Positions 17,886 to 63,842 of a DNA stretch of 64,000 nt are shown piece by piece. The translations under genes were made by a program, and so were the position numbers. This stretch comes from Cyclobacteriaceae bacterium (GTDB lineage Bacteria; Bacteroidota; Bacteroidia; Cytophagales; Cyclobacteriaceae): the NCBI GenBank assembly GCA_049115735.1, contig JAGDZP010000009.1, forward strand, positions 36,355 through 100,354, in the 5' to 3' direction. A model generated the notes under the pieces. That model was not told where the DNA came from, searched no databases, and saw nothing but the letters and a program-made list of their open reading frames with translations. Numbering within the stretch: the stretch's first letter is position 1; every line of letters begins with the position of its first letter.

Positions 17886-17934
17886 CACTTAATATTAACT
17901 ATTAACTTTAAGCTAAACCATAAATAGATATCAC

Positions 17935-18726: not shown

Positions 18727-18735
18727 ACTCAGTTT

Positions 18736-19134
18736 ATGTCTGATAGTTATATCATTGAGCAGGCTGTCAAGCTAAAAGAGGAAGGCTATGATTTTGGAAA
18801 GATCAGAGCTTACCTGAGCAATGCAGGCCACTCCAATGATGACATCAGTTCTGTTTTTAAAATCATGGATGAACGGGAAATTCATGATCTTCAATTCAAT
18901 CAGCGACTCAATACGGCAAGGGTGCAATTGATAGCCTCTCTTGTACTGACATGCGCCGGTGTGATATACAATTTGTACAGGTTTGGGCTAGAAGACAAAA
19001 TAGACTTTATCATATTATTGATACCCCTGTCAATTTTTGTCGCAGCATATTATTCCTTCAAGTCGATAAGGGCCAAAAGATATACTGCCAAAAGTATTCT
19101 ATTTGAAAACTTTGGAAGGAAACATAGGGAATAA
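18736..19134 (+). CDS. Small membrane protein with a cytoplasmic N-terminal helical domain and 2 TM
   Basis: 132 aa. Hydrophobic segments LIASLVLTCAGVIYNLY and FIILLIPLSIFVAAYY. 9-nt spacing from the previous gene. Confidence 0.4.
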   Translation: MSDSYIIEQAVKLKEEGYDFGKIRAYLSNAGHSNDDISSVFKIMDEREIHDLQFNQRLNTARVQLIASLVLTCAGVIYNLYRFGLEDKIDFIILLIPLSIFVAAYYSFKSIRAKRYTAKSILFENFGRKHRE

Positions 19135-19144
19135 ATAAGAGCGA

Positions 19145-20320
19145 ATGAAAATCAAAAAGATTTTTTTGGGAGTAGGGATTGTAGCTAATGCATTGATCAT
19201 GGTCTTCTTTGCTTTGTACCTAATGAAGCTGCCCTGGCTGGCTGGTGACGAAAAGTTCCTAATATGGAGTTCGTCGGCCATAAAGTTCAACAATAGGGAT
19301 ATGCCCAGCTCCGATGAGTTTGCTTTCATAAATACATCCTACGATCTCCAGCTAATAGACCGATTTGACGAGTTTGGCTTTCCTGTGGGCAATCAGGTGA
19401 TTACTGACAGGCAAAAACTGGGTATGCTAATGGACATACTTGCTTCAGGGGAGAAGAAACCGAAGTATGTTATATGTGATATTCACTTTGTGGATTCTAC
19501 AGATTTTGACAAGGAATTGCATGCTGCCTTGCGTAAGATGGACAACATCATACTCTCCTCTCATTTGAATGATAGCGGGATGGTAGATGTGCCTATTTTT
19601 AATGATATCAACAGAGGGCTATCAGATTATGTGATCGGAAGCATTTTCGATGGAGTGTATAAGTATCAGCTTTTTTATCAGGATACTTTGAAGCTTACTC
19701 CACTTAAGGTGCACGAGAAACTTTCTGGGGAAAAGGCAGAAATTATGGGGCCACTCGTGAAAATAGGTGATAGATGGACACTCAATAATTTTATCATGAA
19801 CTACAGGGTGGTGCAAAAGGATATATTAGATATGGAAGCCGGCTTCAATCCCGTTAGTCTTGGAGAGTTGCTGTTTTTGGAAGATAAGGACATACAGGAT
19901 TTTACGGCGGACAAAATAGTAGTGATAGGAGATTTCTTCGAAGCAGATATGCATGAGACACTTTTTGAAATCACCGCCGGGCCACTCATCCTTATCAATG
20001 CTTACCTCACGATCAAAGAGGGTGATGCTGTGGCAAACATTTGGTTCTTTTTCATTGTATTTGCCGTCTTTCTCTACTTAAGCTATATGGTATTTGTAGA
20101 GGGGGACTACATGGAAAAAAAGATAACCAAACTATTCGGCACGATAGCCATAGCTAAATACCTCGCAGGATTCGCAAGCTATATAACCATTCTGGCGCTA
20201 TTGTCGCTTCTTACTTTTTTCCTTTTCCACATACACCTAAATATCTTTTTCCTGGCAGTTGCATTTTACCTTATGGATAAGATTGTTGGATTTATTTACA
20301 GCAAAACCAAAAATTCGTAA
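19145..20320 (+). CDS. Membrane protein with CHASE2-like topology (N-terminal TM, ~270-aa extracytoplasmic domain, C-terminal 3-4 TM) and no output domain
   Basis: Topology read from hydrophobicity (IVANALIMVFFALYL, then a C-terminal TM cluster). The CHASE2 assignment is by architecture only. Confidence 0.35.
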   Translation: MKIKKIFLGVGIVANALIMVFFALYLMKLPWLAGDEKFLIWSSSAIKFNNRDMPSSDEFAFINTSYDLQLIDRFDEFGFPVGNQVITDRQKLGMLMDILASGEKKPKYVICDIHFVDSTDFDKELHAALRKMDNIILSSHLNDSGMVDVPIFNDINRGLSDYVIGSIFDGVYKYQLFYQDTLKLTPLKVHEKLSGEKAEIMGPLVKIGDRWTLNNFIMNYRVVQKDILDMEAGFNPVSLGELLFLEDKDIQDFTADKIVVIGDFFEADMHETLFEITAGPLILINAYLTIKEGDAVANIWFFFIVFAVFLYLSYMVFVEGDYMEKKITKLFGTIAIAKYLAGFASYITILALLSLLTFFLFHIHLNIFFLAVAFYLMDKIVGFIYSKTKNS

Positions 20321-20453
20321 GTTCTAACCCTCCACCCTGTAGGACTTGTGTGCAACAAGCACCTACTGATTATTCCAAATTGAACCAAGCAACAGTTGCA
20401 TTTGCTTATTCCATCAAAACAATAGTTATTTGTGAGCAATCACACTTTAGCAG

Positions 20454-21404
20454 ATGTCCATTATAGTAAAAGGTCTTAGTAAAGTATTTTCATCTGGTGT
20501 TAAAGCCGCGGATGGGATTTCCTTTAAAATCAAAGAAGGAGAAATTATAAGTGTCTTAGGCGAAAGTGGTTCTGGTAAAAGTACCTTGCTCAGGTTATTG
20601 GCAGGTCTGGAGGATGCTGATAACGGGTCAATTACTGTTGGTGAGGAAAAAATCACAGGACCTAAGGATAACCTGGTTCCCGGCTATGATTTCATTACAC
20701 TAGTCTATCAGGATTTTAATCTGCAACGATTTAAAACAGTGGCTCAGAATATCGCTACTGAAGTTTATTTTCTAGATCCTGACAGAAGGGAAAGGCACAT
20801 CAAAAAACTATTGAGAATCTGTTTGCTGACGGATAAAGCTGAAAGCCTTCCCGACGAGCTATCCGGAGGTCAGCAGCAACGGCTTGCCATTGCAATTGCC
20901 CTGGCTAAAGAACCACAAGTCGTTTTGATGGATGAGCCATTTTCTAATCTAGATTCCAGACTCAAATTCAGAATAAGGCAGGAAGTGACGAGCATCCTGA
21001 AAAGGGCAGGAGTCACTGTAATAATGGTGAGCCACGATCATGCGGATGCTATGACACTGGCAGATCGCATAATGATCATGCGAAGAGGAAAAATCATTCA
21101 GGTGGCCACACCGGAGCAGCTATATTATAAACCTAAAACGGAATATGCTGCTAATTTTCTCGGGCCAATGAACTACCTCTTCTTAAATGGTGATAGTGAA
21201 AAGACTGGAGTCCGGCCTGAGCAAATCAAAATTTCAAGAACTGGAAAATTTCACGGTGTGGTGAGCAATTCCATATTTCAAGGCTTACATTACCATGTAT
21301 ATGTAAAGTCTGATATATCAAAAAAGGATGTGCTGATGTATGCTGATAAATCACTGGATGCTGGTAAGGAAATCCAATTTCAGATACAATTGCCTTCCGC
21401 TTAG
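20454..21404 (+). CDS. ABC transporter ATP-binding protein (PotA/FbpC-like with C-terminal TOBE-like domain); orphan, with no permease nearby
   Basis: Walker A GESGSGKST, signature LSGGQQQRLAIAIAL, Walker B VVLMDEPFSNLD. Confidence 0.75.
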   Translation: MSIIVKGLSKVFSSGVKAADGISFKIKEGEIISVLGESGSGKSTLLRLLAGLEDADNGSITVGEEKITGPKDNLVPGYDFITLVYQDFNLQRFKTVAQNIATEVYFLDPDRRERHIKKLLRICLLTDKAESLPDELSGGQQQRLAIAIALAKEPQVVLMDEPFSNLDSRLKFRIRQEVTSILKRAGVTVIMVSHDHADAMTLADRIMIMRRGKIIQVATPEQLYYKPKTEYAANFLGPMNYLFLNGDSEKTGVRPEQIKISRTGKFHGVVSNSIFQGLHYHVYVKSDISKKDVLMYADKSLDAGKEIQFQIQLPSA

Positions 21405-30141: not shown

Positions 30142-30976
30142 TTTAAAGAAATCAAGCTTAATGGGTATCAAAAGCAATATGAAGGAAGCTCTACTCTTCG
30201 TTCTCATCATTTCTTTATTTCTTGGTTGTACTCCAGAACCTAAGCAAGTGATCAAGGGACATGCTCACAATGATTACGAGCACGAAAGGCCATTGTTTGA
30301 AGCTTTAGAAAATGGTTTTATATCGATTGAAGCGGATGTGCATGTGATTGATGGAAAGTTGTATGTGTCACATGATCCACCAGCGGACTTAACCACAACC
30401 AAAACATTGAAAGAATTGTACCTTGAGCCACTGCGCATACATATCAAAAAGAATAATGGTCAGGTATATAAAGGTTATGATGAGTATGTCTATTTGATGA
30501 TTGATATCAAAACCTCGGCTGAATACAGTTATCCATACTTGAGGGAAGCGTTGGCAGAATACAAGGATATTATTTCTGTTATAACAAATGCCGCCGATCA
30601 GAAAACAAAGCCCTTGAAAGTACTTTTCTCCGGTAACCGACCCATAAATGCACTGATGAACGATTCCATAAAATATGCAGGAATAGATGGTAGGCCGGAT
30701 GAGCTGGAGGACAAAATTTCAAAGCCCATGATGCCGGTAATCAGTCAAAACTATAACCGCTACCTTTCCTGGGACGGAAGAGGAACCGCAGACCCAAAGG
30801 AAGTAGTCCTGTTAAAGCAAATGATAGAAAAGGCACATACCCAAGGGAGAAAGGTAAGACTATGGGCTTCTTCAGACATACCTGAGGTTTGGGAATTCCT
30901 ACTGGAATGCGGTGTTGATCTGATCAATACGGATGATTTGAAGGGGTATCGGGAGTTTGCTTTGGACGGTAAGTAA
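30134..30976 (+). CDS. Lipoprotein with PLC-like / GDPD-type phosphodiesterase fold
   Basis: Lipobox LFLGC. The HAHNDYE...ALENGFISIEADVHVIDGKLYVSHD stretch parallels the GDPD HRG...ExDV...HD motifs. The likely true start is the internal ATG at about 30179. Confidence 0.4.
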   Translation: MFDLKKSSLMGIKSNMKEALLFVLIISLFLGCTPEPKQVIKGHAHNDYEHERPLFEALENGFISIEADVHVIDGKLYVSHDPPADLTTTKTLKELYLEPLRIHIKKNNGQVYKGYDEYVYLMIDIKTSAEYSYPYLREALAEYKDIISVITNAADQKTKPLKVLFSGNRPINALMNDSIKYAGIDGRPDELEDKISKPMMPVISQNYNRYLSWDGRGTADPKEVVLLKQMIEKAHTQGRKVRLWASSDIPEVWEFLLECGVDLINTDDLKGYREFALDGK

Positions 30977-31034
30977 GAAATTCTCCAATCCTACATAAAT
31001 GCTTGATTCTGGAGATGATTATAAGGGAGTTGCG

Positions 31035-31065
31035 GCTTTACTAAACTTTTAAAGTTTAGTAAAGC
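31035..31065. repeat. 31-nt perfect palindrome GCTTTACTAAACTT-TTA-AAGTTTAGTAAAGC, copy 1 of a repeated element
   Basis: Read directly. A second near-identical copy lies at 63154-63190. Confidence 0.7.
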
Positions 31066-31085
31066 TATTCTATATCAGAATTCAA

Positions 31086-31114
31086 ATAAAAAAGCACCGA
31101 ATCACTCCGGTGCT
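31086..31114 (-). terminator. Rho-independent terminator for the minus-strand flotillin operon
   Basis: AGCACCG/CGGTGCT 7-bp stem with a T-run on the minus strand (A-run 31086-31093 on plus). Confidence 0.6.
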
Positions 31115-31172
31115 TGATTTACTTCAGATTAAACCTTCAAGGTTTCTGAAACCTAGAAGTTTAGAATCTCAC

Positions 31173-32828
31173 TTATTTAGTCCCCTTCCTGGGAGTCGCT
31201 CTTTTGCCAGTAGGTGTTGCGCGGACAGGTTTCTGAATTTTCGCGGCTTCTTTCTCTTCAGGTTTGGCTTCCGCAGCTTTCACTTCTTTAGCATCCTCAA
31301 TATTCAGATCGCCATTCACATTCATGCTACCAAGGTAGTCTGGTAGGTCAATTCCAACCTGCTTGGCCAAGTCGTGGATAGGAGGTAGAGCACTAATAAA
31401 GTTTCGGATAAAAGATGAAGTGGCATTTTGTCCTTCTCCATTTCCACCTGAACCACCATCCCATACAGTGATTTTGTCGATCTTCAAGTTAGACAATGCT
31501 TCAGTTTGTCTACTCACTAAGGTATCAAGCTGCTCCAGCAAGAGTAGGGTAGAGGCAGCTTTGCTGTCGCCATCACAAGCATTGATAATCTCCTTGTATC
31601 CTGCGGCTTTTGAGTTTAGCAGTTCTTCCATACCCTTAGCTTCTGCCTGGTATTTCAAGAGTGTTGAATCAGCCTCACCTCTGGCAATGTTGATCAGCTC
31701 TGCTGCTTTGGCTTCTGCGTCAATGGTGACCTTCTGCTTATCAATTTTCTTCTGAACAATCTCCTCCTTTTCCAGGCGAGTTTGCTCTGCCAACTTCTCT
31801 GCTTCAAGAATCTGTTTCATGGCTTCAGCTTTGGCAACATCGCTTCTTCGTTTGGCTTCAGCCACTCTTTCTGCCAGTTCAGCATTCGATGTAGCTTCAG
31901 TAGCTTTGGATTCGTTTTCTCCGGTAATGGCTTCTGCTTCCAGTGTAGCCACTTTTACCCTTTGTTCTGTATCCGCTTCTTTTCTACCCTCGGTCGCACG
32001 AGCATTCTCCAAGGCTATTTGAACTTCTCTTTCTCTTCCTGCTTTTGCTTCACCCAGGCTCGCTTCAGTTTCATAGTTGGCAATGGTTACCCTTTTCTTA
32101 GCATCAGCTTCTTTTACTCCTTCTTCACTTTGTGCCTGTTCTATAGCCACTTTTACATCTTTTTCTCGCATTGCCCTGGCCTCACCTGTGGCACCTGAAG
32201 CTTCCTGATCAGCCACTTCTACTTTCGCCTTGTTGATTGCTTCTGCAGCGGCTTTCTTACCGATAGCTTCGATGTAACCGGACTCATCCGTGATATCTTT
32301 GATATTCACGTTTATCAGTTCCAGGCCAACTTTATTCAACTCAGAAGCTACGTGTTTGTTAATGAGCTGTAGGAATTGCTCACGGTCTTTGTTGATCTCT
32401 TCTATTGATAGCGTGGCAATTACTAACCTTAGCTGACCGATGATGATGTCTGTTGCCTGCGTTTCTATTTCATCCTGATCCAGACCAAGTAGCCTTTCTG
32501 CAGCATTGAGCATGATGCCTTCGGCTGTTGATATACCTACAGTAAAAGTACTTGGTGTGTTGATTCTGATATTTTGCTTGGATAGAGCTCCTTTCAGGTC
32601 TATATCTATCGGTATTGGTTTCAGGTCCAGGTATTCATATTCCTGAATAATGGGTATGATCAAAGCACCACCACCGTGCACACATCGTGCACTTTGCGAG
32701 CCACCAACTTTACCATAGATCACAAGCACTTGGTTTGAAGGACACCTTTTGTACCTGGCGATTATTATAATTAAGAGGAGTAAAAATAGGCCTATGCCTA
32801 CAAAAGTCATATTTGATAAAAATTCCAT
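31173..32828 (-). CDS. Flotillin-like SPFH/band-7 protein (YqiK-type) with a long A/E/K-rich coiled-coil
   Basis: N-terminal TM, then SPFH core, then extended EA-repeat coiled coil. 551 aa, as E. coli YqiK. Confidence 0.8.
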   Translation of the reverse strand: MEFLSNMTFVGIGLFLLLLIIIIARYKRCPSNQVLVIYGKVGGSQSARCVHGGGALIIPIIQEYEYLDLKPIPIDIDLKGALSKQNIRINTPSTFTVGISTAEGIMLNAAERLLGLDQDEIETQATDIIIGQLRLVIATLSIEEINKDREQFLQLINKHVASELNKVGLELINVNIKDITDESGYIEAIGKKAAAEAINKAKVEVADQEASGATGEARAMREKDVKVAIEQAQSEEGVKEADAKKRVTIANYETEASLGEAKAGREREVQIALENARATEGRKEADTEQRVKVATLEAEAITGENESKATEATSNAELAERVAEAKRRSDVAKAEAMKQILEAEKLAEQTRLEKEEIVQKKIDKQKVTIDAEAKAAELINIARGEADSTLLKYQAEAKGMEELLNSKAAGYKEIINACDGDSKAASTLLLLEQLDTLVSRQTEALSNLKIDKITVWDGGSGGNGEGQNATSSFIRNFISALPPIHDLAKQVGIDLPDYLGSMNVNGDLNIEDAKEVKAAEAKPEEKEAAKIQKPVRATPTGKRATPRKGTK

Positions 32829-32830
32829 AA

Positions 32831-33352
32831 TTATTGAGTTTTATAAGGTTCAACAAATAATACATTGCCCTGCACATCATACACAAGTATTTCAGTGCCG
32901 GTTTCTATTTTGTCCTGATTGGTTTTAGCGTGAAATGTTTTCAGTCGGCCTTGCACAACCAACTGCACCTGGCCACTTCCTTCTCCATTCCCTGGAATAC
33001 CGAGGTATACCTTTCCTGTTTTTCCTACTGCGTTATTGATATCTATATTTCCTTTTTCATTGAGTCCCTTAAGTTTTTTCATCATCAGGATTGATCCGAC
33101 AAAAGCCAATGAACCCATGAAAATAGCAACCATTAGAATTTTAAATTCTGACATATCAGTGGTTGTGTGACCAAAGTATCCAGCCCAACCTCCAATGCAA
33201 ACAAATGCTATCAGGGAGTTGAAGGAAAAATCACCTCCAAACAATTCGATTTCAAAATGGTCGACATCCAGTCCAATAAAGGTGAGCAACACCACCAGAC
33301 CCAAAAAGCCGCTGGAATAGATTGCGATGTTCCAATATATATCTACAGTCAT
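32831..33352 (-). CDS. NfeD-like membrane protein (YqiJ-type) with a C-terminal OB-fold
   Basis: N-terminal TMs plus GKTGKVYLGIPGNGEGSGQVQLVVQGRLKTFHA OB-like segment. Immediately upstream of flotillin in the same orientation. Confidence 0.6.
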   Translation of the reverse strand: MTVDIYWNIAIYSSGFLGLVVLLTFIGLDVDHFEIELFGGDFSFNSLIAFVCIGGWAGYFGHTTTDMSEFKILMVAIFMGSLAFVGSILMMKKLKGLNEKGNIDINNAVGKTGKVYLGIPGNGEGSGQVQLVVQGRLKTFHAKTNQDKIETGTEILVYDVQGNVLFVEPYKTQ

Positions 33353-33509
33353 TTTATTAAGGTTTAAAATTCAAATCAATTTATCTATACGCTGAATCTT
33401 TACACATTCCTTCTATCTTTTCCCTTTAGGGGAAATAAGAAAGGGGTGAATTGAAAACAATATGTGTAAATATTCTCACTACCAAAACTTCAGGTTTGTG
33501 GCCAGGGCG

Positions 33510-35057
33510 TCAGTAAAACTCCCATTTGCCACGTAAATAGTATTTATACAAAACCGGATTGTGTATCTTATTTACTTCGATGTTTACAGTATCCTCCGCA
33601 AACAACGGTTTACCAAAGGATGTCATCAGTGTCATCGATTCATGGTTGATCCATCTTGTTCTTATTGTGGTTTCATCAAAGCGGAGACTTTGAAGAGCCT
33701 TTTCTAATTTCTCTGGATCTCCATTTTTTGCACCCAATACCCAGCCCCATTCTCCAAGCGTAATCACTTGGTTGTGCATGGGTGCTGTTGTAAATCCAGC
33801 CTCCTGCATAGTCAGGTTTATGCAATTAAATGCTTTGGCGGCATAATATGGGCTACCAGCCTGGGTCACCACCAATCCATGTGGTCTAAGTCGTTTGTGG
33901 CAAAGTCTATAAAATTCATAAGAATAGAGCCTGCCCATTTCTACTGTCTTTGGATCGGGTAAGTCAATGATAATTACATCATAGAAGCCAGCATCACTTT
34001 CCAGGAAATTGTAACCATCGGTGTTGATAATGTTCAGTTTCTCATGATTCATAGAATTCTGATTCATGGTTACTAACAAATCATGTGTCTTACCAAGGTC
34101 TGTCATCACAGGATCAAGATCGACCAATGTGATAGTTTCGACTGATTGGTATTTCAGAATTTCTCTTACCGCTCCACCATCTCCGCCACCAAGTATTAAT
34201 ACCTCTTTTGGTAGTTTAGATAGGCTCATTGCTGGATGAACCAGGGGCTCATGATACATATACTCATCAATAGAGCTTAGCTGTTGATTGCCATTGATGA
34301 ATAACCAAAAGTCTTCTTTGGACTGAGTGATAACTACTTTCTGGTATTTGCTCTGCTCTTCGAAAACCACATTGTCTTTATACCTTTTTTCTTCCCCATA
34401 GCTTATGATAGGTTGGGCAAATAGGAAGCCTGAAACCAGTAGTACAAATACCCCAAAGGAGAGGAGGTTTGTTCTCATCCTTGCTGTAGACTCCAGATTC
34501 GATTTTAGAATGAAGTACAATAAAATCGCCACGCTGAAATTAATGCTTCCTAGAATAACAGGAGTATAAGTCAGACCTAAGTAGGGAAGACCAATGAAGG
34601 CAAAGAATACACCACCAATCAAACTGCCGTAGTAGTCATTCTCCATCACAGATGAAACGTTGATGTGCAGCTTCTCAAACTGGTCGTTCAACCTAATTAC
34701 GATTGGGATTTCCATACCAATCAAAAGGCCGATGATGATGCTAAGCGAATAGATGATCCAATAGGAGCCCCCATAGTAAGCCGTCACTGAATAGGTGATC
34801 ACCGATACGTAGGCAGTTAGAATCGACAGGGTAAATTCAATCAGAATGAACTTCTGAAGCAGGTCGCCCGAAAAGTATTTACTAATGCGACTTCCGAGCC
34901 CCATGGAAAAAAGCATGATCGATACGATCATAGTCCATTGGAAAACAGAGTCGCCAAGAAAATAGGTAGCAAGTGTGGACAAAACGTATTCGGCAACAAT
35001 TCCTGACAAGCCTGTAGCGAACAGCGCGAGTTTCAGAATGTTGGAATGTAGTTTCAT
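33510..35057 (-). CDS. Polytopic membrane domain fused to a spermidine/spermine synthase-like aminopropyltransferase domain
   Basis: About 200-aa N-terminal multi-TM region, then LILGGGDGGAVREIL and DLPDP motifs of spermidine synthase. Confidence 0.7.
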   Translation of the reverse strand: MKLHSNILKLALFATGLSGIVAEYVLSTLATYFLGDSVFQWTMIVSIMLFSMGLGSRISKYFSGDLLQKFILIEFTLSILTAYVSVITYSVTAYYGGSYWIIYSLSIIIGLLIGMEIPIVIRLNDQFEKLHINVSSVMENDYYGSLIGGVFFAFIGLPYLGLTYTPVILGSINFSVAILLYFILKSNLESTARMRTNLLSFGVFVLLVSGFLFAQPIISYGEEKRYKDNVVFEEQSKYQKVVITQSKEDFWLFINGNQQLSSIDEYMYHEPLVHPAMSLSKLPKEVLILGGGDGGAVREILKYQSVETITLVDLDPVMTDLGKTHDLLVTMNQNSMNHEKLNIINTDGYNFLESDAGFYDVIIIDLPDPKTVEMGRLYSYEFYRLCHKRLRPHGLVVTQAGSPYYAAKAFNCINLTMQEAGFTTAPMHNQVITLGEWGWVLGAKNGDPEKLEKALQSLRFDETTIRTRWINHESMTLMTSFGKPLFAEDTVNIEVNKIHNPVLYKYYLRGKWEFY

Positions 35058-35062
35058 CTTTC

Positions 35063-35755
35063 TTAGGAGCTTGTTGTTACTGTAGCCGATACCGTTGCTG
35101 CTGTCACCGCTGCAGATATTGCTACCTGCACTTCCTGAATCGTTTGATCAACAGATTCGGCTATTGGATTTTCTTTTATAAATAATTTGAGCGCTTTCTT
35201 GATTTCTCTTTTTTCCTTTCTGTCATTGCTTAAAATCCCTTGTCCACCACTTGAATAGATCAAAGACAATAAGACAGCTTCATCCGGAGAACTGTTTTGT
35301 CCTTTCAGTACAATCTCTCTTAGCCTTTGGATCAGTTCATTACGTTCGGATTTTTCCTTCAAGCGGCAGATCTTATATGGGATGAACAAGAACTTCTTGT
35401 GTTCGATGCTGAAGTAGCCATCTTTTTCCATTCTATAGAGAATGACCCACTTAAAGGTCTTGACTTTGCGCGAAACCTTGCTGATCCACTGGGTGATTTT
35501 GCGTTTCTTCTTTGAGTTTTTGATAAGGTTAAATACCTCATAATCCAATGGTTGTTTCAGTTGATTGATTTCGCCAGCCTGGTCATTTACCAAAAGGTAT
35601 TTTCCATCTATTTTCAGCAAACCACGCAAATTCATACCGAGCAATATGGCCCCAACTATCCCATAGGGCAGGATCATATCGGATATCATCCATCGACCCT
35701 TCTCAGGATGCTGAGCCAGTAGCAAATATTTCTCTATGGTGTTTAATGTTCTCAA
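35063..35755 (-). CDS. GPP34/GOLPH3-like protein
   Basis: N-terminal LLLAQHPEKGR resembles the GPP34 LLLA...EKGR signature. About 230 aa. Confidence 0.35.
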   Translation of the reverse strand: MRTLNTIEKYLLLAQHPEKGRWMISDMILPYGIVGAILLGMNLRGLLKIDGKYLLVNDQAGEINQLKQPLDYEVFNLIKNSKKKRKITQWISKVSRKVKTFKWVILYRMEKDGYFSIEHKKFLFIPYKICRLKEKSERNELIQRLREIVLKGQNSSPDEAVLLSLIYSSGGQGILSNDRKEKREIKKALKLFIKENPIAESVDQTIQEVQVAISAAVTAATVSATVTTSS

Positions 35756-35763
35756 AATAATTT

Positions 35764-36627
35764 TTATAGTAACCAGGTAATCAATACAGATCCACCTATA
35801 TATGCAAATGCTTCAACCAATGCCGCTCCATTGTTTGGATGCTCCTGGTTGACCAGCTCATCAGTCAGGTTCTGCCCAGGGAGCAAGATCTTATCAGCTA
35901 GAAATCTCACTATCGGTAAGAAGACGAGCCCTATTCCTACGTCCAAGGCCACACCCTCCAGGGTGATCAGCCAGTCTTCAAAATCGTGCATGAGTGCAAA
36001 GCGAATGAGATTACCTATCGCTATTAATGCACCGGCAAACCCAATGCCCACTGCAATATTTCCCTTTTTTATATGTTCATGAATATCGTAGGGCGTGATG
36101 AGATTGTAAACCAATGATGTCACGTACATTAGGGCCTGTCCCAAGATCCAATAGAGCACAGCGGTAATTATGGGGCCTCCGGCACCATGGCCTTCGCCAT
36201 GAATGGCACCAAGCACAATTAGCCCAGTCGAAACTGCCATAGCACCTTCCACCACTCCGGTACCCACATTGCGGTCTTCTACTATTTCCTTCTTCACATC
36301 AAACTTTCTCAATATTAATTTGTCATTAATGAGAATGGATAGGTTTAATAGAAGAATTGAAAGTGCGCCGTAAATTCCGATATCTATTAGGTCTTGAACC
36401 AGCCCAGCGGACTCACCGAGTAGTGCACTGCCAATAGCAGCAAGTAACCCAATGAAATATCCAACATAGGCAATTGAAAAAGCAAAGTTGTCGTGTTCAA
36501 CCAGTTCATAATTCACTTTTACCCCGGGGTGGAACCATTGGTACACCGTTTTGCCAATGAAAAATAAAAGGAATGAAACCGCCAGGTATACCAGTGTTTC
36601 AAGTATGTCGTCAAATAATGGTAACAT
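35764..36627 (-). CDS. Polytopic integral membrane protein, possibly DUF350/YjfL-like (internal repeats)
   Basis: Seven or more hydrophobic helices and an internal duplication. The family assignment is tentative. Confidence 0.35.
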   Translation of the reverse strand: MLPLFDDILETLVYLAVSFLLFFIGKTVYQWFHPGVKVNYELVEHDNFAFSIAYVGYFIGLLAAIGSALLGESAGLVQDLIDIGIYGALSILLLNLSILINDKLILRKFDVKKEIVEDRNVGTGVVEGAMAVSTGLIVLGAIHGEGHGAGGPIITAVLYWILGQALMYVTSLVYNLITPYDIHEHIKKGNIAVGIGFAGALIAIGNLIRFALMHDFEDWLITLEGVALDVGIGLVFLPIVRFLADKILLPGQNLTDELVNQEHPNNGAALVEAFAYIGGSVLITWLL

Positions 36628-36656
36628 GTATTATAGGTTTAGATGTTGGTTTTAGT

Positions 36657-37409
36657 TTATTTTCCGAATCCCCCGCCTCTTGATCGAGAACTAGAGCTTC
36701 CCCACCTTGAGCTTGAGCTTGTGGTTTTTTTGCTTGTGGACGACTGAGAAGTTCTATTCGCAACTCGCTGTTTAAAACTCGATGTATTTCTGCCCCATCT
36801 GGAGTTCGGTCGTGTGCTGCTTGTGTATTTACTATTGGTGCCGTATGTCGATCTTCCACCTGTAGATGGTCCATAGTAAGAGCGACCAGTACCATAGTAG
36901 TTGCCACGATAGTCGTCATAGTACGACCTCCTAACAGGGTAGGTAGCCATTCTAAACATGCTGCTCATAAAGGCATATTGACCATAAAACGCCCAGAAGC
37001 TGTGTCCGCCGGAATTTTGCCAATGTCCGTACCTGGAGTTGCCAACATAATTGTTGTAGCCGGGAGGGCTGGCAGACTTATGGAGCTTTCCATCTTCACC
37101 ACGCGAGGCGATTTCCATGCCCATATTATTTGCGTGTTGATTGAAGAAATGTTCATCCACTTCAAACCAGCCTGTCTCTTCTTCTGTGGGCTTGCCAGCC
37201 TCCTTCTCTTCTACGATGACGTATTGGTGGGTATAGGTTTTAAAGAAACTCCCTTCCACGTTCATGTCATTCAGTATTATGGAGAACACCCGATCTCTTG
37301 GGATCTCTTTTACCAGAATGTCCACTGGGTTTTTTACAAATCTATTGCCGCCACAGCCTGCTAGCAGCGTCAGTATTAATAATCCTATTATGCCTTTGTA
37401 AGCTTTCAT
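36657..37409 (-). CDS. Lipoprotein with a long Tyr/Gly/Ser/Arg-rich low-complexity C-terminal tail
   Basis: Lipobox LLAGCGG after an internal Met (start taken at 37409). The C-terminal approx. 90 aa are YYG/RGG/SSS-rich and ungapped. Confidence 0.5.
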   Translation of the reverse strand: MKAYKGIIGLLILTLLAGCGGNRFVKNPVDILVKEIPRDRVFSIILNDMNVEGSFFKTYTHQYVIVEEKEAGKPTEEETGWFEVDEHFFNQHANNMGMEIASRGEDGKLHKSASPPGYNNYVGNSRYGHWQNSGGHSFWAFYGQYAFMSSMFRMATYPVRRSYYDDYRGNYYGTGRSYYGPSTGGRSTYGTNSKYTSSTRPNSRWGRNTSSFKQRVANRTSQSSTSKKTTSSSSRWGSSSSRSRGGGFGK

Positions 37410-37658
37410 TGATGTCTTTTTCTTGGTTAGTTTAATTTCTTCTATTTTTCTTACTGTTTTTATCAATTATTAGGAGCAATTACTCCGGTACTCTTAGTCA
37501 CTCTCCTCCGGCCTTCACTACTCGTCCCGATTTCATCGGGGACTCAGACATGCCGTTCAGTCCGGGCTAATGAGTAGCTTTTTTGTGTTTCCAGCAGTGA
37601 TTCTTTACTTCGTTTAGATTGACAATGACAGAGCGAACCTTGTCATCCTGATCCTACA

Positions 37659-38213
37659 TTACTCCTGTGCCGCTGGAATAATATTCGAAATCTCAAACTC
37701 TTTGATCACTTTCCCTACAGATGCTTCAAACTCTCTTTCTCCCCATTGTGTGATGGACAATATTTTCTTTTCGTCATCATCGTAGTAGTCCCAGCTGATG
37801 AATTCCTCCCAATCGCCTGTGCCTTTTGTATTGTTGTTGAAGTAGCCAGCCAGATCTGTGTCGAGATAATAGATCACTTCTTTGTATTCGATCTTTTTTG
37901 GAGGACGTTCTTTCTTTATCGTCTTTTCGATTATGTCCTCTCCAAGCTTGCGCATTTTCACCGACTTGCTTACTGAGAGCGAAAGCCCTCCTTCATTTTC
38001 TACGCTTAGGTACAACTCTTCGTCTCCAGAGTCAATCAAGTATTCTTTTGAGAAATTATTGTTGCCCCAATCATACTCATAGACCTCCTTCACCTGCCAT
38101 GATTTCATATCATAGTCCAATATAAAACCCTGATCTAAATCTTCCACCGTTACATGAGTGATGTCGTATTCCGGTTCCGTTTCTTTCTTTTTTAAAAAAT
38201 CAAATAAGCCCAT
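37659..38213 (-). CDS. Acidic cytoplasmic protein, DUF4178-like
   Basis: 184 aa, very acidic, with W/Y-rich repeats. The assignment rests on composition and the known PspA neighbourhood, not on a motif match. Confidence 0.3.
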   Translation of the reverse strand: MGLFDFLKKKETEPEYDITHVTVEDLDQGFILDYDMKSWQVKEVYEYDWGNNNFSKEYLIDSGDEELYLSVENEGGLSLSVSKSVKMRKLGEDIIEKTIKKERPPKKIEYKEVIYYLDTDLAGYFNNNTKGTGDWEEFISWDYYDDDEKKILSITQWGEREFEASVGKVIKEFEISNIIPAAQE

Positions 38214-38367
38214 ATTTACTTTTTAATTTCCTCTAATCTCTGAGAGGCCTCAATATTAATATTTTCCGTACTATTCTCTGTGTTCCTCTGTTTCGTATAG
38301 CCACTTACTTCATGGGCGTTTATCATCAATCCGAAGAATAAGACCAGCGATATAAAGTGTCCTTTTT

Positions 38368-38514
38368 TCAACTGCCGAATACTCTTTGGAAAAGGTACAA
38401 GCCTGCAATAATGATCAGGAATATAATTCCTATTTTTACCAGGATACCAAAAACGAATCCTGCCAAAAAAAGGACTGCCGCTACTACCAACAATATTTTA
38501 ATCAAGTCAAACAT
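38368..38514 (-). CDS. Unannotated 48-aa two-TM peptide between PspA and the DUF4178-like gene
   Basis: Minus-strand ATG at 38514. Translation MFDLIKILLVVAAVLFLAGFVFGILVKIGIIFLIIIAGLYLFQRVFGS, with stop at 38368-38370. It is below the ORF-track length cutoff. Confidence 0.35.
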   Translation of the reverse strand: MFDLIKILLVVAAVLFLAGFVFGILVKIGIIFLIIIAGLYLFQRVFGS

Positions 38515-38591
38515 CTTATTGATCTACTTTGTTTTCGAAGGTGCCGGCCACCGAATGGCGGTCGGCATTTCTGATTTATGATTATCCCCTT

Positions 38592-39302
38592 TTATTTATC
38601 TAATCCTAGTTTGGCTTTCATAGCAGCCAGGTCATCAGCCGCTTTTACTTCTGCAGTGCCACCTTCTAGTGCTTTTTCGATTTCATCGTCCACACTTTTG
38701 CTCTCGTTGGCTATTTCGCCATAAGACTCTGCCAACGCTTCTTCCTGCGCAACTTTGTCCTTCATCTTTTCGAGCATAGCCACAGTTCCGGAAGCATCTA
38801 CTTGCGAAAGTTGCTTATTAAGATTTTTTGTTGCGGTACTCACTTTTACGCGAGCTTTTAGCGTCTTTAATTCGTTCTCATATTGGCTGATGGTGCTGCG
38901 AATTTTCTTCACATTTACATCTAGTTGAGATACGTTCTTGTCAAATCTTTCCTGCTCTTCTTTTGCACGATTCATTTGGCCATTGGCTTCTTCTTTTTTC
39001 ACTAGCGCCTCACTTGCCAATCGATCTGCTTCTGCTGCATCTATTTGACCGTCCGCACCTCTTTTTAATAGGAGCATGGCTTTGTTTTCATAGTCTTTGG
39101 CTTTGCTCTTATAGGTCTCCACATCGTTTTTAGATCGGATAGCCATTGCTTTTACTTCTGCCAACGCGTGTAGGCTTTTATCCAAATCACTTTTTAAGTC
39201 TCTGATGCCTTGTTCGGTCATTTTAATTGGGTCTTCCAATTTGTCTATCGCAGCATGTGCTTCTGATTCACCGATTTTGAAAAGTCTTCTAAACATGTTC
39301 AT
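38592..39302 (-). CDS. pspA: PspA/IM30 family protein (phage shock protein A / Vipp1 / LiaH family)
   Basis: MFRRLFKIGESEAHAAIDKLEDPIKM aligns with the E. coli PspA [26 protein letters not shown]. Coiled-coil throughout, LAAMKAKLG C-terminus, 236 aa. Confidence 0.85.
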   Translation of the reverse strand: MNMFRRLFKIGESEAHAAIDKLEDPIKMTEQGIRDLKSDLDKSLHALAEVKAMAIRSKNDVETYKSKAKDYENKAMLLLKRGADGQIDAAEADRLASEALVKKEEANGQMNRAKEEQERFDKNVSQLDVNVKKIRSTISQYENELKTLKARVKVSTATKNLNKQLSQVDASGTVAMLEKMKDKVAQEEALAESYGEIANESKSVDDEIEKALEGGTAEVKAADDLAAMKAKLGLDK

Positions 39303-39314
39303 AATTTCTCTATT

Positions 39315-39710
39315 TTAATTTTTTGATAATTTTAAGATTTCTCCTGAATACTCACCAAGGAGCATGGCCAGGGAATTAAATGTTGCTTCGATCTCGTTAA
39401 GATCGAGATTTTCTAGTTCATGTGTATTTCTGAAAAGTACCTTGTCACCGGTTTCATCCAGTACAAAAGCGCCATGGATAATGTCCCTGCTCTTTTGCAT
39501 GAGTGCTTTGTAGGTTTCGGCATTCGGGTCTTTTAGTTCTACAATAAATTGCTCAATGATCAACAATGGATCAGCCACCACAAGGACCAGATTTTTTATT
39601 CCCTGAGCTTCGTTTTCGATTACTATTAATCCGTCTTCCTGATTTTCGTAAGTTTTGGAATATCCCAGGTCAAGCAAGTATTCGTTTACTTTCTGAAAGT
39701 AATTGTTCAT
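39315..39710 (-). CDS. Small cytoplasmic protein, possibly YjfI/DUF2170-like (YbjN-type fold) PspA partner
   Basis: 131 aa, directly upstream of pspA with a 12-nt gap. Assigned by position and size, by analogy to E. coli yjfI-yjfJ. Confidence 0.3.
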   Translation of the reverse strand: MNNYFQKVNEYLLDLGYSKTYENQEDGLIVIENEAQGIKNLVLVVADPLLIIEQFIVELKDPNAETYKALMQKSRDIIHGAFVLDETGDKVLFRNTHELENLDLNEIEATFNSLAMLLGEYSGEILKLSKN

Positions 39711-39877
39711 TTTAAAATAATTTTAGATGTGCAATTAAATTTTTGATGGGTCTGTATTTCAATCAAATTTAATTACTTATTAATAGGTTATTGAATCTTG
39801 ATTGTTAAAAGTTGGTTTAATTTCCTGGTGGTGCTCTGAATTTCATATTTGATTGTGTCATTTTGTTTTACCTGACT

Positions 39878-39893
39878 ATGTTTACGTAAACAT
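39878..39893. promoter_or_regulatory. Perfect 16-nt palindrome ATGTTTACGTAAACAT in the divergent intergenic region between the PspA operon and the XRE/S24 regulator; candidate operator
   Basis: Read directly. It lies about 170 bp from the yjfI-like start and about 200 bp from the regulator start. Confidence 0.45.
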
Positions 39894-40089
39894 AATGCAA
39901 ATAGTTTTAGAGTTGCAAAAAAAATTAGCAATTAATATTATTTCTCTTTCAATGCTCTATCTTTGAGGTGTTGATTCCCGTATCTAGTAAACCCTTAATT
40001 CAATACCTGAAGAAGTCAGAGATTTGAAATTAAACAAAATGACCAAAACCGCTTTAATCTTATATCAATAAGTCTTTTATCTGTTAGTT

Positions 40090-40878
40090 ATGTCTTTCGT
40101 AGGAAAAAATATAAAGAAGATTAGATCGCTCAAAAAGATCAGTCAGAGCGAATTTGCTAAGATTTTCAATCTTACCAGGGGTAGTATAGGAGCCTATGAG
40201 GAAGAGCGGGCTGAACCAAAAATTGACACAATAATTCAATTGGCTAATTATTTTGGCTTATCGATTGATGCCTTGATTAATAAGGAATTGACCATGAATG
40301 ACCTATACAGTCTGGATATGGTTAATGAAAAACTTAATGAAGCCCATCACTTCAAAAAAGAAACCAAGGCAACCTTTAGAAGAGGAGGAATTGGTTTGGT
40401 AAAAATTGACAATCAACTAGAGTATGTCGTTAATTTTAGCAACAAGGATTTCATCAATAAACTTCCTGGCATTGAATTTCCGGTGAACTTCAAAGGTATA
40501 GCTAGGGCTTTTGAACTGAATGGTAGTGAAATGGAATACCATCAAAATGGGTTACACCATGGTGATATACTTTTGTGTAGGCTCAGTGGTATTAAAGACA
40601 AAAAGCTAGAGAATGGAAAGGTGTATGTATTGGTAGGTGATGGACAGATCATCGTACGACGACTAAAGTCATTGGCAAAAAGCCAAATGACGTTTTCGAG
40701 TGACGATCCAAATTACGATGAATTAGAAATCCCTCACGAAAGCATAGTAGAAATGTGGGAGGTAAGGGGTGCATACAGCACATACCTAAATCCACCAAAG
40801 ATGATTGAAGAAAAGGTGATGTTACTGGAAATGCAGATGGCAGATTTTCAAAAGCAGTTGAAGGGGCTGTCCAAATAA
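40090..40878 (+). CDS. XRE-family HTH transcriptional regulator with a C-terminal S24 (LexA/CI-like) peptidase domain
   Basis: N-terminal ISQSEFAKIFNLTRGSIGAYEEERAEPKIDTIIQLANYFGLSIDAL is a canonical HTH_XRE. The C-terminus has NGSEM...GDILLC...GQIIVRRLK, which is S24-like. Confidence 0.7.
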   Translation: MSFVGKNIKKIRSLKKISQSEFAKIFNLTRGSIGAYEEERAEPKIDTIIQLANYFGLSIDALINKELTMNDLYSLDMVNEKLNEAHHFKKETKATFRRGGIGLVKIDNQLEYVVNFSNKDFINKLPGIEFPVNFKGIARAFELNGSEMEYHQNGLHHGDILLCRLSGIKDKKLENGKVYVLVGDGQIIVRRLKSLAKSQMTFSSDDPNYDELEIPHESIVEMWEVRGAYSTYLNPPKMIEEKVMLLEMQMADFQKQLKGLSK

Positions 40879-40879
40879 G

Positions 40880-41833
40880 TTACTCGGAATACACATTTTG
40901 TAACCAGGCAAAAAGCTCCATACTCCATGCCAGGGCTACATGCAATATTACTCCACCCCAGATCCTGTTCGTATAAAAAGCCAGGATGCCTATTAGGTAG
41001 CCACCAAATGCTGAGCTGATCGTTTCTGGCAGTGGCTTGCCAAAGTGCAAGAAAACATAACTGCCAACCATCGCAATCACGGCATGTCCTCCAAGCACCC
41101 TGGCAAAAGCTATGACTAAAAAACCTCTAAAAAATAGCTCAACGCTAATGTAGTAGGAGCCATATACCAGCTCATATACCAGAACTGATATGAGCTCGGG
41201 AATATCGTGAACATCAGCAAAGGCTGTTCCGCCAGAATGTTTATATCGAGGGTAGTAGGTGTTGAGCTCAGACAAGAAAGACGCTATTGCCATCCCACCG
41301 AAAACAAGAAGTACTAGTATTATGTATGGTTTAAAATCGAAGTGTTTGAGGGTGAGTCCATACCAATGTCTTTCCGTATCATTAGTCCTTTCATAGAAAT
41401 AATAAAATATCATTAGCGGCAGTACAGTAGCTATCAAGCTATCACCCCAGTTAATTGCTCTAAAAGCAAAAATGTAATCTACTCGTGGGAGCGTCCTAAG
41501 AAAGTCGTTGAAATAATAAAATTGACGATCAAAACTGATTATTGCGAATCCAACAATGAACTTGATCCAGTATTCTTTTGAATTTAGCCAGGTCTTCTGA
41601 ATTCCAAAAACATAAAGCAATCCGCAGGTCACGAGAAATGGAAATGACATGTGGAGAAACATAAAGAGCCATTTCAGCTCCGATCCATGATAGCTGTCCA
41701 GAATTGAGTCTTCAAAATCGTACTTGTAGTTGAAGTAAATACAGATGCCTAAGAAGACAGTTACACTCAAATAGAACTTCCAATGAAAGTGTTCTCTCAG
41801 ATATTTTTTGAGGTATTGGAGAATGGTGTTCAT
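40880..41833 (-). CDS. CPBP-family (CAAX/Abi) intramembrane metalloprotease
   Basis: Polytopic. Has SVELFFRGF (E-x3-R) and FLHFG/HVALAW histidine motifs in TM helices. Confidence 0.5.
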   Translation of the reverse strand: MNTILQYLKKYLREHFHWKFYLSVTVFLGICIYFNYKYDFEDSILDSYHGSELKWLFMFLHMSFPFLVTCGLLYVFGIQKTWLNSKEYWIKFIVGFAIISFDRQFYYFNDFLRTLPRVDYIFAFRAINWGDSLIATVLPLMIFYYFYERTNDTERHWYGLTLKHFDFKPYIILVLLVFGGMAIASFLSELNTYYPRYKHSGGTAFADVHDIPELISVLVYELVYGSYYISVELFFRGFLVIAFARVLGGHAVIAMVGSYVFLHFGKPLPETISSAFGGYLIGILAFYTNRIWGGVILHVALAWSMELFAWLQNVYSE

Positions 41834-45783: not shown

Positions 45784-46935
45784 ATGGACCTTAAGCTATT
45801 TTTTGATTCAATTGACGAGAAGCTGGCTTCTCATTCTCTTCCTACAGATTCACTATTCAACTTCATTTATGTGAATGAGCATAAAATGCCTGAAAAAGAA
45901 GGTATGGATATGGCAATAATTGGATTGAATGAGATTAGGGGCAATGCAAGTATTTCAAGAACCGGCACGGATGTTATTAGGGAAAAACTCTACTCTTTGA
46001 AGCGTGGCTTGGGTACATGCAATATAGCTGACCTTGGTAACCTGAGAAATGGACCCACGCTTGATGAAACCATCATCCGTTTGAAAGAGGTGTTGTTTCA
46101 TCTGATGGAAAACAATATCTTGCCGATCTTAATCGGAGGTACTCACGACCTGGATATAGGTCAATATCTGGCATTTGAGAATCAGGAAAAGTTAGTTTCA
46201 CTCTTAAATATTGATTCTCGGTTTGATTTGGAGGAAGGGGAAGAGTGTAGTCCCAGCCAGAGACATTTGCACAATATCTTTACACACGAGCCAAACTATT
46301 TATTCAATTATAATCAGCTGGGTCATCAGAGCTATTTTGTTAACCCATCCGCATTGAAAGTGATGGAACAATTGAATTTTCAGACACATCGGCTAGGTGA
46401 CGTGCGTGAAGATTTACACAGGATGGAGCCCATCATTCGAGAGGCCGATATGCTCACCTTCGATATATCGGCGATCAAGAATCAATATTGCCCGGGAGGA
46501 AGTACTTCTGATGTATTTGGGCTAACAGGGGAGGAGGCTTGTCAGATCTGCTGGTATGCCGGCATGAACGACAAACTAAGCTCTGCAGGGTTTTATGAAT
46601 ATGATCCGGACAAAGACCATGATGATCAACCTACGGCAATGACCATAGCTGTGATGATCTGGTATTTTATTGAGGGGTTTAAGAATAGAAAAGGAGAGCG
46701 TGGTTTTCAAACTAACGACTTTTTAAAATATGTGGTGTCAACTGACGATGCGCCCGGGGACATAGTATTTTACAAAAGTCAGCTTTCGGAAAAATGGTGG
46801 GTTGAAGTTCCTAACCCATCTCAAAAAGGCATTTACGACAGAAACCTGGTGGTGCCATGCGATTACTCCGATTATGAAAAGGCCACCAAAGGAGAGATGC
46901 CGGAGCGTTACCTAAACGCCATTTCAAAAGCCTAA
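45784..46935 (+). CDS. Arginase/ureohydrolase-fold family protein (formiminoglutamase/agmatinase-like)
   Basis: LIGGTHDLDIG and FDISAI segments resemble ureohydrolase motifs. I could not identify a canonical DxHxD. Confidence 0.4.
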   Translation: MDLKLFFDSIDEKLASHSLPTDSLFNFIYVNEHKMPEKEGMDMAIIGLNEIRGNASISRTGTDVIREKLYSLKRGLGTCNIADLGNLRNGPTLDETIIRLKEVLFHLMENNILPILIGGTHDLDIGQYLAFENQEKLVSLLNIDSRFDLEEGEECSPSQRHLHNIFTHEPNYLFNYNQLGHQSYFVNPSALKVMEQLNFQTHRLGDVREDLHRMEPIIREADMLTFDISAIKNQYCPGGSTSDVFGLTGEEACQICWYAGMNDKLSSAGFYEYDPDKDHDDQPTAMTIAVMIWYFIEGFKNRKGERGFQTNDFLKYVVSTDDAPGDIVFYKSQLSEKWWVEVPNPSQKGIYDRNLVVPCDYSDYEKATKGEMPERYLNAISKA

Positions 46936-63793: not shown

Positions 63794-63842
63794 CAACCCC
63801 ATCTAGTCGGCGTTAACCGACAGCTCAAAAAATATAACAGCA

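Follow-up and report, generated by a model that had tools for sequence, protein, structure and literature searches.

A conserved CesT/Tir-PspA-aminopropyltransferase gene core with putative NfeD-flotillin and GPP34 additions in a Cyclobacteriaceae bacterium

A 64-kb stretch of DNA from a member of the Cyclobacteriaceae (the window, by which we mean the whole 64,000 nucleotides) carries ten consecutive minus-strand open reading frames (ORFs), g1 to g10, that run from position 39710 down to 31173. Comparison with related loci shows that seven of these genes are a conserved unit, encoding in order a CesT/Tir chaperone, PspA, a small peptide with two transmembrane (TM) segments, a DUF4178 protein, a lipoprotein, a double DUF350 protein and a 7TM-aminopropyltransferase. 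Judged by its gene content, this unit belongs to the CesT/Tir-PspA operons that Ravi et al. (mSystems 2024; PMC11237479) defined as their "second major group", and the cluster is probably a lineage-specific, extended version of an envelope-stress operon type that comparative genomics had already defined. That statement concerns identity and architecture; the mechanistic chain that we outline below is much less certain. An earlier reading made from the sequence alone (the sequence-only reading) took the ten genes for one linked functional arrangement. The comparison resolves them instead into the seven-gene core, a divergently transcribed regulator that the earlier reading had omitted, an NfeD-flotillin pair that is present in some relatives and absent from others with 95-96% identical cores, and a GPP34 gene inserted in this genome only.

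Results

The seven-gene core and its conservation

All ten ORFs predicted at 31173-39710 are present at those coordinates. We compared them with 31 related loci (designated by L numbers), of which 24 came from a scan seeded with the DUF350 protein (g6) over one genome per GTDB species and seven were added through close homologues. All window proteins were mapped onto the 24 seeded loci by tblastn, and homologues of g5 and g8, with the contigs that carry them, led to the closer relatives. Genes for the DUF4178 protein, the lipoprotein, the DUF350 protein and the TM-aminopropyltransferase lie in the window's order in 21 of the 24 seeded loci, and the core is also kept in seven further loci. The 21 are species-level genomes of the Cytophagales and Flavobacteriales, drawn from Reichenbachiella, Fulvivirga, Roseivirga, Cyclobacteriaceae, Splendidivirga and Aquimarina and from metagenome-assembled genomes placed only to Flammeovirgaceae, Roseivirgaceae or Bacteroidota. 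CesT-PspA precedes the core in every locus whose contig extends far enough, and the sequence 3' of the enzyme gene in the 24 loci is variable and often occupied by convergent genes.

Profile searches of the cluster proteins were run against Pfam and NCBIfam, and structure-linked sequence searches against PDB. The first gene, g1 (39315-39710, minus strand, like all genes of the cluster), encodes an acidic, 131-residue CesT/Tir-like chaperone that matches CesT_Tir_1 over its full length (E 9e-48) and is kept adjacent to PspA in related loci. It had been labelled YjfI-like, of the DUF2170 family; because Pfam returns CesT_Tir_1 and no DUF2170 match, the likeness to YjfI holds at the superfamily level only. 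The product of g2 (38592-39302) is a member of the PspA/IM30 family of ESCRT-III-fold membrane-remodelling proteins, as the earlier reading had it, with a PspA_IM30 match at E 6e-41 and an alignment along its full length with Vipp1/PspA structures (E 1.7e-12). It scores far under the equivalog cutoffs for PspA (51 vs 243 bits) and LiaH (34 vs 380 bits), and no cluster gene has a Pfam or NCBIfam match to the canonical Psp and Lia partners PspB, PspC, PspF, LiaI, LiaF or LiaRS.

The third gene (g3, 38368-38514) encodes a 48-residue peptide with two hydrophobic segments and no family match. Often missing from annotation, as in L034, it is nevertheless kept in at least 17 related loci, with its sequence and position conserved in nearly all Cytophagales loci, and it is a candidate membrane anchor for PspA. 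The junction between PspA and DUF4178 where it lies is also an insertion hot spot: L002 and L008 hold about 8 kb there, and five Aquimarina loci (L017-L019, L022 and L023) carry a gene for a voltage-gated-type ion channel of 264-267 residues between pspA and the DUF4178 gene, at the position taken by the 2-TM peptide in the Cytophagales.

The DUF4178 protein g4 (37659-38213; Pfam E 1.5e-21) is acidic, with 42 Asp and Glu against 23 Lys and Arg, and its N-terminus, MGLFDFLKKK, is conserved in an alignment of 18 informative orthologues. A peptide of the form MG(L/V/I)F(D/N/S)(F/I)(L/F)KKK starts the operon's DUF4178 proteins (window 38184-38213). We take it to resemble the start of the membrane-binding helix alpha-0 of PspA/Vipp1 (MGLFDR...), and its role may be that of a short amphipathic tag for the membrane or of a PspA mimic. 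PDB sequence searches with g1 and g4 returned nothing usable. The lipoprotein g5 (36657-37409 or 36657-37466) has the lipobox LLAGC, a small beta-rich N-domain and a tail rich in Tyr, Gly, Arg and Ser that ends SRSRGGGFGK; it has more than 800 homologues (808) and no Pfam family. In an AlphaFold2 (AF2) model, the predicted local confidence (pLDDT) is about 75-88 over the signal peptide and N-domain (residues 1-113) and below 50 over residues 114-250. This tail is strongly conserved across 43 homologues, with many invariant columns and a nearly invariant SRSRGGGFGK, yet is modelled as disordered, and it may be under constraint and take up a fold only in the presence of a partner.

The membrane-fused aminopropyltransferase

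The two remaining core proteins are polytopic. One, g6 (35764-36627), belongs to the YjfL family, with about eight TM segments and two DUF350 repeats (Pfam E 4e-58). The other, g8 (33510-35057), joins a 7TM domain to a complete aminopropyltransferase domain. Profile searches bear out its earlier label of TM-fused spermidine-synthase-like protein: it matches Pfam Spermine_synth at E 2e-39 and belongs to the NCBIfam family PRK03612, "polyamine aminopropyltransferase" (550 bits against a cutoff of 472). An AF2 model (pLDDT 83.6) has about seven TM helices within residues 7-226, followed by the full SpeE fold, including its N-terminal beta domain, and superposes on solved SpeE structures with TM-scores of 0.72-0.80. 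Among the 50 best Foldseek matches listed, only the SpeE domain was covered, and the 7TM part by none.

The motifs YHE (Y268), GGGDGG (D293) and DLPDP (D365 and D368) of g8 align with Pyrococcus SpeE and are invariant in 42 homologues. These residues correspond to Y76, D101, D173 and D176 of the Thermotoga maritima enzyme, the roles of which are taken from published work (PMC7298707, PMC10349129). Two proteins that share a membrane-domain fusion with g8 differ from it in this set: Pseudomonas SpeE2, also TM-fused, has T, E and P at the three Asp positions (PMC7298707), and the fungal enzyme NHMT, in which a 7TM domain is likewise joined to the spermidine synthase (SpdS) fold, has Ile in the GxG(D/E)G motif and uses S-adenosylmethionine (SAM; PMC10349129). 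Because g8, unlike SpeE2 and NHMT, retains the full catalytic set, it looks like a working aminopropyltransferase that depends on decarboxylated S-adenosylmethionine (dcAdoMet). In the homologue alignment the TM domain also has invariant polar residues, namely E23, Q40, E74, E116, R122 and D141. The same type of polytopic-SpdS fusion was reportedly described by Li et al. (Biochem J, 2019), who are said to have linked MFS-SpdSyn fusions to AdoMet decarboxylase (AdoMetDC) and DUF350.

Several relatives carry a second polyamine-type cluster a few kb from the core and on the opposite strand (L036, at 14904-20729; L005-L008, L014, L015 and the Aquimarina loci L017-L019, L022 and L023). In L036 it lies just downstream of the core in convergent orientation, with genes for a K+ channel, a TM-SpeE paralogue (35-56% identity with g8), a 372-residue membrane protein and an amine oxidase; this second cluster is absent from the window. 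At 45784-46935, 6 kb away from the cluster, is a gene of the arginase family, whose product may be an agmatinase or ureohydrolase; its synteny with the cluster is kept in the close relative L035.

Relation to published operon types

The second major group of Ravi et al. combines CesT/Tir-PspA with a 7TM-spermine-synthase fusion, an 8TM DUF350 protein, a lipoprotein termed Ctha_1186 that has a low-complexity tail and a DUF4178 protein; its prototype is SO_3765/SO_3766 of Shewanella oneidensis (PMC11237479). The window has a counterpart of each: a CesT/Tir chaperone, PspA, DUF4178, a lipoprotein with a low-complexity tail, DUF350 and a TM-fused Spermine_synth protein. Compared by description only, g5 corresponds in position and architecture to the "Ctha_1186 + low-complexity" lipoprotein. 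The match is not exact. The Shewanella order is lipoprotein-DUF350-SpeE-CesT-PspA-DUF4178-RHH; the window's chaperone is CesT_Tir_1 rather than DUF2170; the terminal RHH transcription factor that is present "in some cases" is absent from the window, which has a divergent regulator with helix-turn-helix (HTH) and S24-like domains instead; and the window adds the conserved 2-TM peptide, GPP34 and NfeD-flotillin.

Features of the first group of Ravi et al. are present as well. The supplement of that study includes an operon of Dokdonia donghaensis (IS97_2772) with a divergent "cHTH+Protease" gene, CesT_Tir, YqiJ/YuaF, a Band-7-flotillin and an AAA+ ATPase (PMC11237479), and the group is related to the Pseudomonas aeruginosa bac cluster, PA3732-PA3729. 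The window shares with it the flotillin (g10), the YqiJ/YuaF-like g9, although with a sub-threshold NfeD score, and the same type of regulator. It differs in having no beta-propeller or AAA+ ATPase between 31173 and 40878, and in the five or six genes that separate PspA from NfeD, among them the aminopropyltransferase module. Since the Dokdonia-type operon joins CesT-PspA directly to YqiJ-flotillin, the window reads, in terms of predicted gene content, as a group 1 architecture with an aminopropyltransferase module inserted between PspA and NfeD, and thus as a fusion of the two published groups.

More distant parallels exist. The yjfIJKLMC cluster of Escherichia coli, the "third group" of Ravi et al., resembles the window in its CesT-like YjfI, PspA-like YjfJ, cytosolic protein, DUF350 protein YjfL, lipoprotein and polyamine-linked enzyme (a gene list taken in part from that study). 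It differs in that the enzyme is an ATP-grasp ligase like glutathionylspermidine synthetase, the cytosolic protein is of the DUF2491 and the lipoprotein of the DUF1190 family, and there is no flotillin. Coupling between an SPFH protein and PspA has been shown experimentally in Bacillus subtilis, where YdjI is encoded with PspA in pspA-ydjGHI and is reported to be needed to recruit it to the membrane (PMC8581546). YdjI is of another SPFH subtype, and that operon has no polyamine enzyme, CesT-like chaperone or DUF350 protein.

The NfeD-flotillin and GPP34 additions

Two of the three genes outside the core lie at the 3' end of the cluster. The product of g10 (31173-32828) is a flotillin, as had been read from the sequence, with an N-terminal TM segment, an SPFH domain (Pfam Band_7, E 1e-29), a coiled coil rich in Glu and Ala and a flotillin C-terminal region; residues 28-383 match flotillin-1/2 structures at E 1e-22. 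Its neighbour g9 (32831-33352) scores 24.8 bits against Pfam NfeD, for which the gathering score is 29.1. In PDB it matches B. subtilis YuaF best (E 0.01), and a gene of its type always stands directly upstream of the flotillin gene in the loci examined. Because of that match and that position, the earlier assignment of g9 as an NfeD/YuaF/YqiJ-like membrane protein and flotillin partner is reasonable despite the sub-threshold score. In all, nine domain labels proposed from the sequence hold, and two, those of g1 and g9, need the qualifications given here. The PspA, flotillin and spermidine-synthase assignments, failure of which would by its own account have refuted the sequence-only reading, all pass profile searches, so that reading does not fall on their account.

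An NfeD-flotillin pair after the enzyme gene is confined to a sublineage. In L039, L040 and L041, in which g8 is 82% identical to that of the window, the full core is followed after 22 nt by NfeD (62-64% identical) and flotillin (84-86% identical), and a CarboxypepD_reg/DUF5686 gene comes next. The same enzyme-NfeD-flotillin junction is found on L027, a 1.4-kb TARA scaffold. The pair has thus kept its place at the operon's 3' end while protein sequences diverged by about 19%, and despite different downstream neighbours in the window and in L039; in the window these are a convergent GDPD gene and a FAD-oxidase gene. NfeD, flotillin and GPP34 have no tblastn match in any of the 24 seeded loci (best E 0.13).

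The third added gene, g7 (35063-35755), encodes a basic protein of the GPP34/GOLPH3 family and of otherwise unremarkable composition (Pfam GPP34, E 1.6e-24; 87.5 bits against a cutoff of 29.1, covering profile positions 3-201 of 201). It is inserted between the DUF350 gene, 8 nt after it, and the aminopropyltransferase gene, 5 nt before it, and because of these gaps it must be co-transcribed with its neighbours. Unrelated insertions, recognised only from a reading of the sequence, occupy the same junction elsewhere: L003 has an IS200/RAYT-like ORF and L014 a DUF559-like one. A PDB sequence search with g7 returned nothing usable. In a weak alignment to 3KN1 (E 0.79), too unreliable to build on, K99 and K102 fall at what we take to be R171 and R174 of the phosphatidylinositol 4-phosphate (PI4P) pocket of GOLPH3, and the presumed pocket residues W81 and R90 are unmatched.

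The only published view of bacterial GPP34 is as a proposed secreted PI4P binder in sponge symbionts (PMC11706023), and the window gives a single-genome hint, and no more, of an endogenous membrane role. Elsewhere in the Cytophagales, at 8314-10687 of L030, co-directional genes encode a Band_7 protein of 284 residues, proteins of 201 and 57 residues and, last, a GPP34 protein 39% identical to g7, a second and independent case of GPP34 beside an SPFH protein.

Gene spacing, terminator and regulatory region

The intergenic gaps from g1 to g10 are, in order, 12, 77, 154, about 249, 29, 8, 5, 157 and 2 nt. An intrinsic terminator with a 10-bp stem followed by a T-run, found by a terminator scan and by reading the sequence, closes the cluster at 31115-31092 on the minus strand, as the earlier reading had noted. 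The scan detected no comparably strong site inside the cluster, its four other minus-strand hits being weak stems within ORFs. The g3-g4 gap is spanned by a possible ORF of 51 codons with a TTG start and doubtful status (38216-38371, minus strand); no related locus examined has a homologue, the 54-residue single-TM ORF at the same gap in L036 being dissimilar, and because it is not conserved we do not count it as a gene. Rfam in E-value mode gave only a chance microRNA match in 30900-40200, and folding of the long spacers found no significant structure (z -0.94 for g8-g9 and -0.65 for g4-g5). In view of these results we propose no riboswitch or attenuator in the long spacers.

Divergent from the cluster, at 40090-40878 on the plus strand, lies the regulator gene, for a protein with an XRE-type HTH (Pfam HTH_19/HTH_3) and a Peptidase_S24-like domain. 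At least 15 related loci have it in the same divergent position, upstream of the cluster; eight of them are among the 21 seeded core loci, where it stands opposite the CesT gene. In nine orthologues the G-x-S-M motif of the S24 domain reads GSEM, GSAM or GDHM, with E, A or H at the position of the catalytic Ser, and the Lys column (the residue after "RL", aligned by motif) is not conserved; a PDB search with the C-terminal domain found no structure match. Because the catalytic Ser is replaced and the Lys column unconserved, the S24-like domain looks non-catalytic and self-cleavage of the LexA kind is improbable for the regulator. SOS-like control by such a repressor of the LexA/CI type was accordingly rejected.

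An alignment of nine loci reveals a putative operator/promoter block of about 50 nt between the two genes (39881-39931, minus strand), with 21 invariant columns. In order, it contains the palindrome TTGCTAAT-N-TTGCAA, then CTAAAACT.TTTGCA and CGTAAA, and a -7-like box of the Bacteroidetes type, TATGTTTA. In the window the palindrome is TTGCTAATTTTTTTTGCAA at 39931-39913, its sole exact match in the 64 kb, so that a regulon search with it returned only the cluster's own site. A -7 box, TAAATTTG, with a perfect match to the Bacteroidetes consensus TAnnTTTG, lies at 39764-39771 (minus strand), about 53 nt before the ATG of g1, and the motif TAAATTTGAT is found at the same relative place in L004, L005 and L014. 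We infer operator and promoter functions from these patterns for the block, in which the palindrome would overlap a promoter of the Bacteroidetes type, and for the box.

Directly beyond the regulator, at 40880-41833, is a gene for a polytopic, Rce1-like protein of 317 residues (CAAX protease family). It has the same place in L034-L036 and L039-L042, where its products are 68-79% identical, and this membrane protease might form part of the same regulatory unit. A putative PadR-HAAS pair lies at 63434-64000, some 24 kb away from the PspA cluster: a PadR-family regulator (63434-63793) and an ORF that runs off the window end and starts MKKNISINISGIIFHIEEDGYSKLKEYLESINSYF, which to the eye looks like the start of a HAAS domain. 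PadR-HAAS is another of the PSP-related modules of Ravi et al. (PMC11237479).

Discussion

The composition of the cluster suggests a most likely, if uncertain, sequence of events. Repression of the operon by the HTH/S24-like protein, acting at the palindrome, would last until it is lifted by an envelope signal. The CesT-like chaperone might then keep PspA soluble and hand it to the inner membrane, on whose cytoplasmic side PspA would polymerise. The 2-TM peptide could tether PspA there, on the model of LiaI-LiaH and PspB/C-PspA, and so, where present, could the NfeD-flotillin scaffold, on the model of B. subtilis YdjI. The 7TM-aminopropyltransferase, whose intact dcAdoMet-type active site should face the cytoplasm, would aminopropylate a diamine-like acceptor at the membrane, and the product would probably pass to or through the 7TM/DUF350/lipoprotein module and change the surface charge of the membrane, the DUF350 protein and the lipoprotein linking aminopropylation to the periplasmic side. 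GPP34 might serve as an extra peripheral adaptor that binds anionic lipid. A bolder version, which we consider improbable, is that three scaffolds, namely the ESCRT-III-like PspA, the SPFH flotillin with NfeD and the GOLPH3-like GPP34, are produced from one operon together with a membrane-embedded aminopropyltransferase, and that at the site of repair this enzyme either synthesises a polyamine and passes it on or aminopropylates an amine of the membrane. If this were true, GPP34 of bacteria would act as an endogenous adaptor for membrane lipid and not as a secreted host effector, and membrane repair of the ESCRT-III type in bacteria would include polyamine chemistry as an integral step.

A number of observations weigh against the cluster acting as one functional system in this way. 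Some concern how much can be said of its parts: the operon type has no experimental characterisation, as the sequence-only reading had also held for this arrangement, and the literature offers no transcript, genetic or biochemical data for any member (PMC10948618), and a Foldseek search with the AF2 model of g5 assigned no fold (best E 0.18) and so gave no clue to its role. Others would be expected if the ten genes were three adjacent, unrelated units without coupling, that is, the core operon, an autonomous NfeD-flotillin pair of the yqiJK/yuaFG type with its own promoter and a neutral GPP34 insertion. The pair is missing from L042, which has the same flanks and core proteins 95-96% identical to those of the carriers L039 and L041, as well as from L034 and L035 and from all 18 more distant loci with at least 3 kb of downstream sequence. 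Stand-alone NfeD-flotillin pairs without an aminopropyltransferase tail upstream are found on two metagenome contigs (L025 and L026), and the 157-nt spacer between g8 and g9 in the window contains promoter-like motifs, including the -7-like TTGATTTG. GPP34 is absent from the DUF350-enzyme junction in all 31 related loci, and the nearest homologues of g7, 37-43% identical, lie in five different unrelated neighbourhoods.

Because the pair is absent from L042 with its near-identical core, we regard NfeD-flotillin as accessory, and its absence from the other loci as well implies that the core works without it. That the ten genes are merely adjacent we nonetheless think unlikely. The g8-g9 spacer is just 22 nt in L039-L041, linkage of the pair to the core has been kept across the protein divergence and the change of downstream neighbours described above, and no terminator or significant structure separates g8 from g9 in the window. 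The Dokdonia-type operon, with the same type of regulator, joins CesT-PspA directly to YqiJ-flotillin (PMC11237479), and separate transcription of g7 is impossible given its gaps of 8 and 5 nt.

What the enzyme modifies is a separate matter. Rather than making free polyamine, the 7TM enzyme could aminopropylate a lipid head group or a peptide or protein amine and so modify the envelope covalently, an alternative that is compatible with the architecture we favour and that we consider a serious though lesser possibility. No AdoMet decarboxylase family matched any of the scanned window ORFs (nearly all ORFs of at least 110 residues). Related TM-fused SpeE-like proteins are reported not to make spermidine (Li et al., as cited by Ravi et al.). 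The latter authors themselves raise "aminopropylation of other substrates", citing that work (PMC11237479), which, like the lack of a decarboxylase match, counts against simple spermidine synthesis. Pseudomonas SpeE2 is a second TM-fused SpeE-like protein that is not a canonical spermidine synthase (PMC7298707), and fungal NHMT, with its 7TM domain and SpdS fold, modifies a protein N-terminus (PMC10349129). The invariant polar residues in the TM domain of g8, and the occurrence of DUF350 with TM-SpeE but without PspA in L024, point the same way. Against this, g8, unlike NHMT and SpeE2, has the residues that position a putrescine-like diamine, namely the acidic one in GxG(D/E)G and the two Asp in D-x-x-D-P, and it exceeds the threshold of an NCBIfam equivalog named for polyamine aminopropyltransferase. 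The coupling of polyamine synthesis to membrane repair that the sequence-only reading suggested is a hypothesis already in print (PMC11237479), of which the "polyamine synthesis" part is unproven; we qualify that label because no scanned window ORF matches an AdoMet decarboxylase and because other substrates have been reported for related TM-fused enzymes.

That the cluster employs membrane-active proteins for anti-phage defence, or as a system of the toxin type, is a very remote prospect. PspA was first found as a phage-shock protein, and PADLOC gave weak matches of LmuB to the PspA coiled coil (E 1e-6) and of mad2 to the Rossmann domain of g8 (E 2e-16). Both fall in generic coiled-coil or methyltransferase-fold regions, however; no other cluster gene matches any of the 5027 defence models, and the locus has conserved, syntenic chromosomal genes around it (pyrF, a radical-SAM gene and the Rce1-like gene), not a defence island. 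The preferred reading remains an extended member of the CesT/Tir-PspA envelope-stress operons.

PspA/Vipp1 proteins and flotillins form the two main families of bacterial membrane scaffolds, of interest for how they are recruited and for the chemistry that accompanies repair. The locus establishes no new principle, as links of PspA to polyamines and to flotillin were both predicted in 2024; it is a variant of a known, computationally defined operon class, with two lineage-specific additions, NfeD-flotillin and GPP34. It does offer both predicted modules in a compact, naturally fused form with one putative operator. The near-isogenic natural variants with and without the flotillin pair (L039 and L041 vs L042) could guide experiments, and an aminopropyltransferase fusion with an intact predicted active site makes the question of which amine is modified directly testable. 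The single GPP34 gene within the operon, finally, gives a starting point for work on what GOLPH3 homologues do in bacteria.

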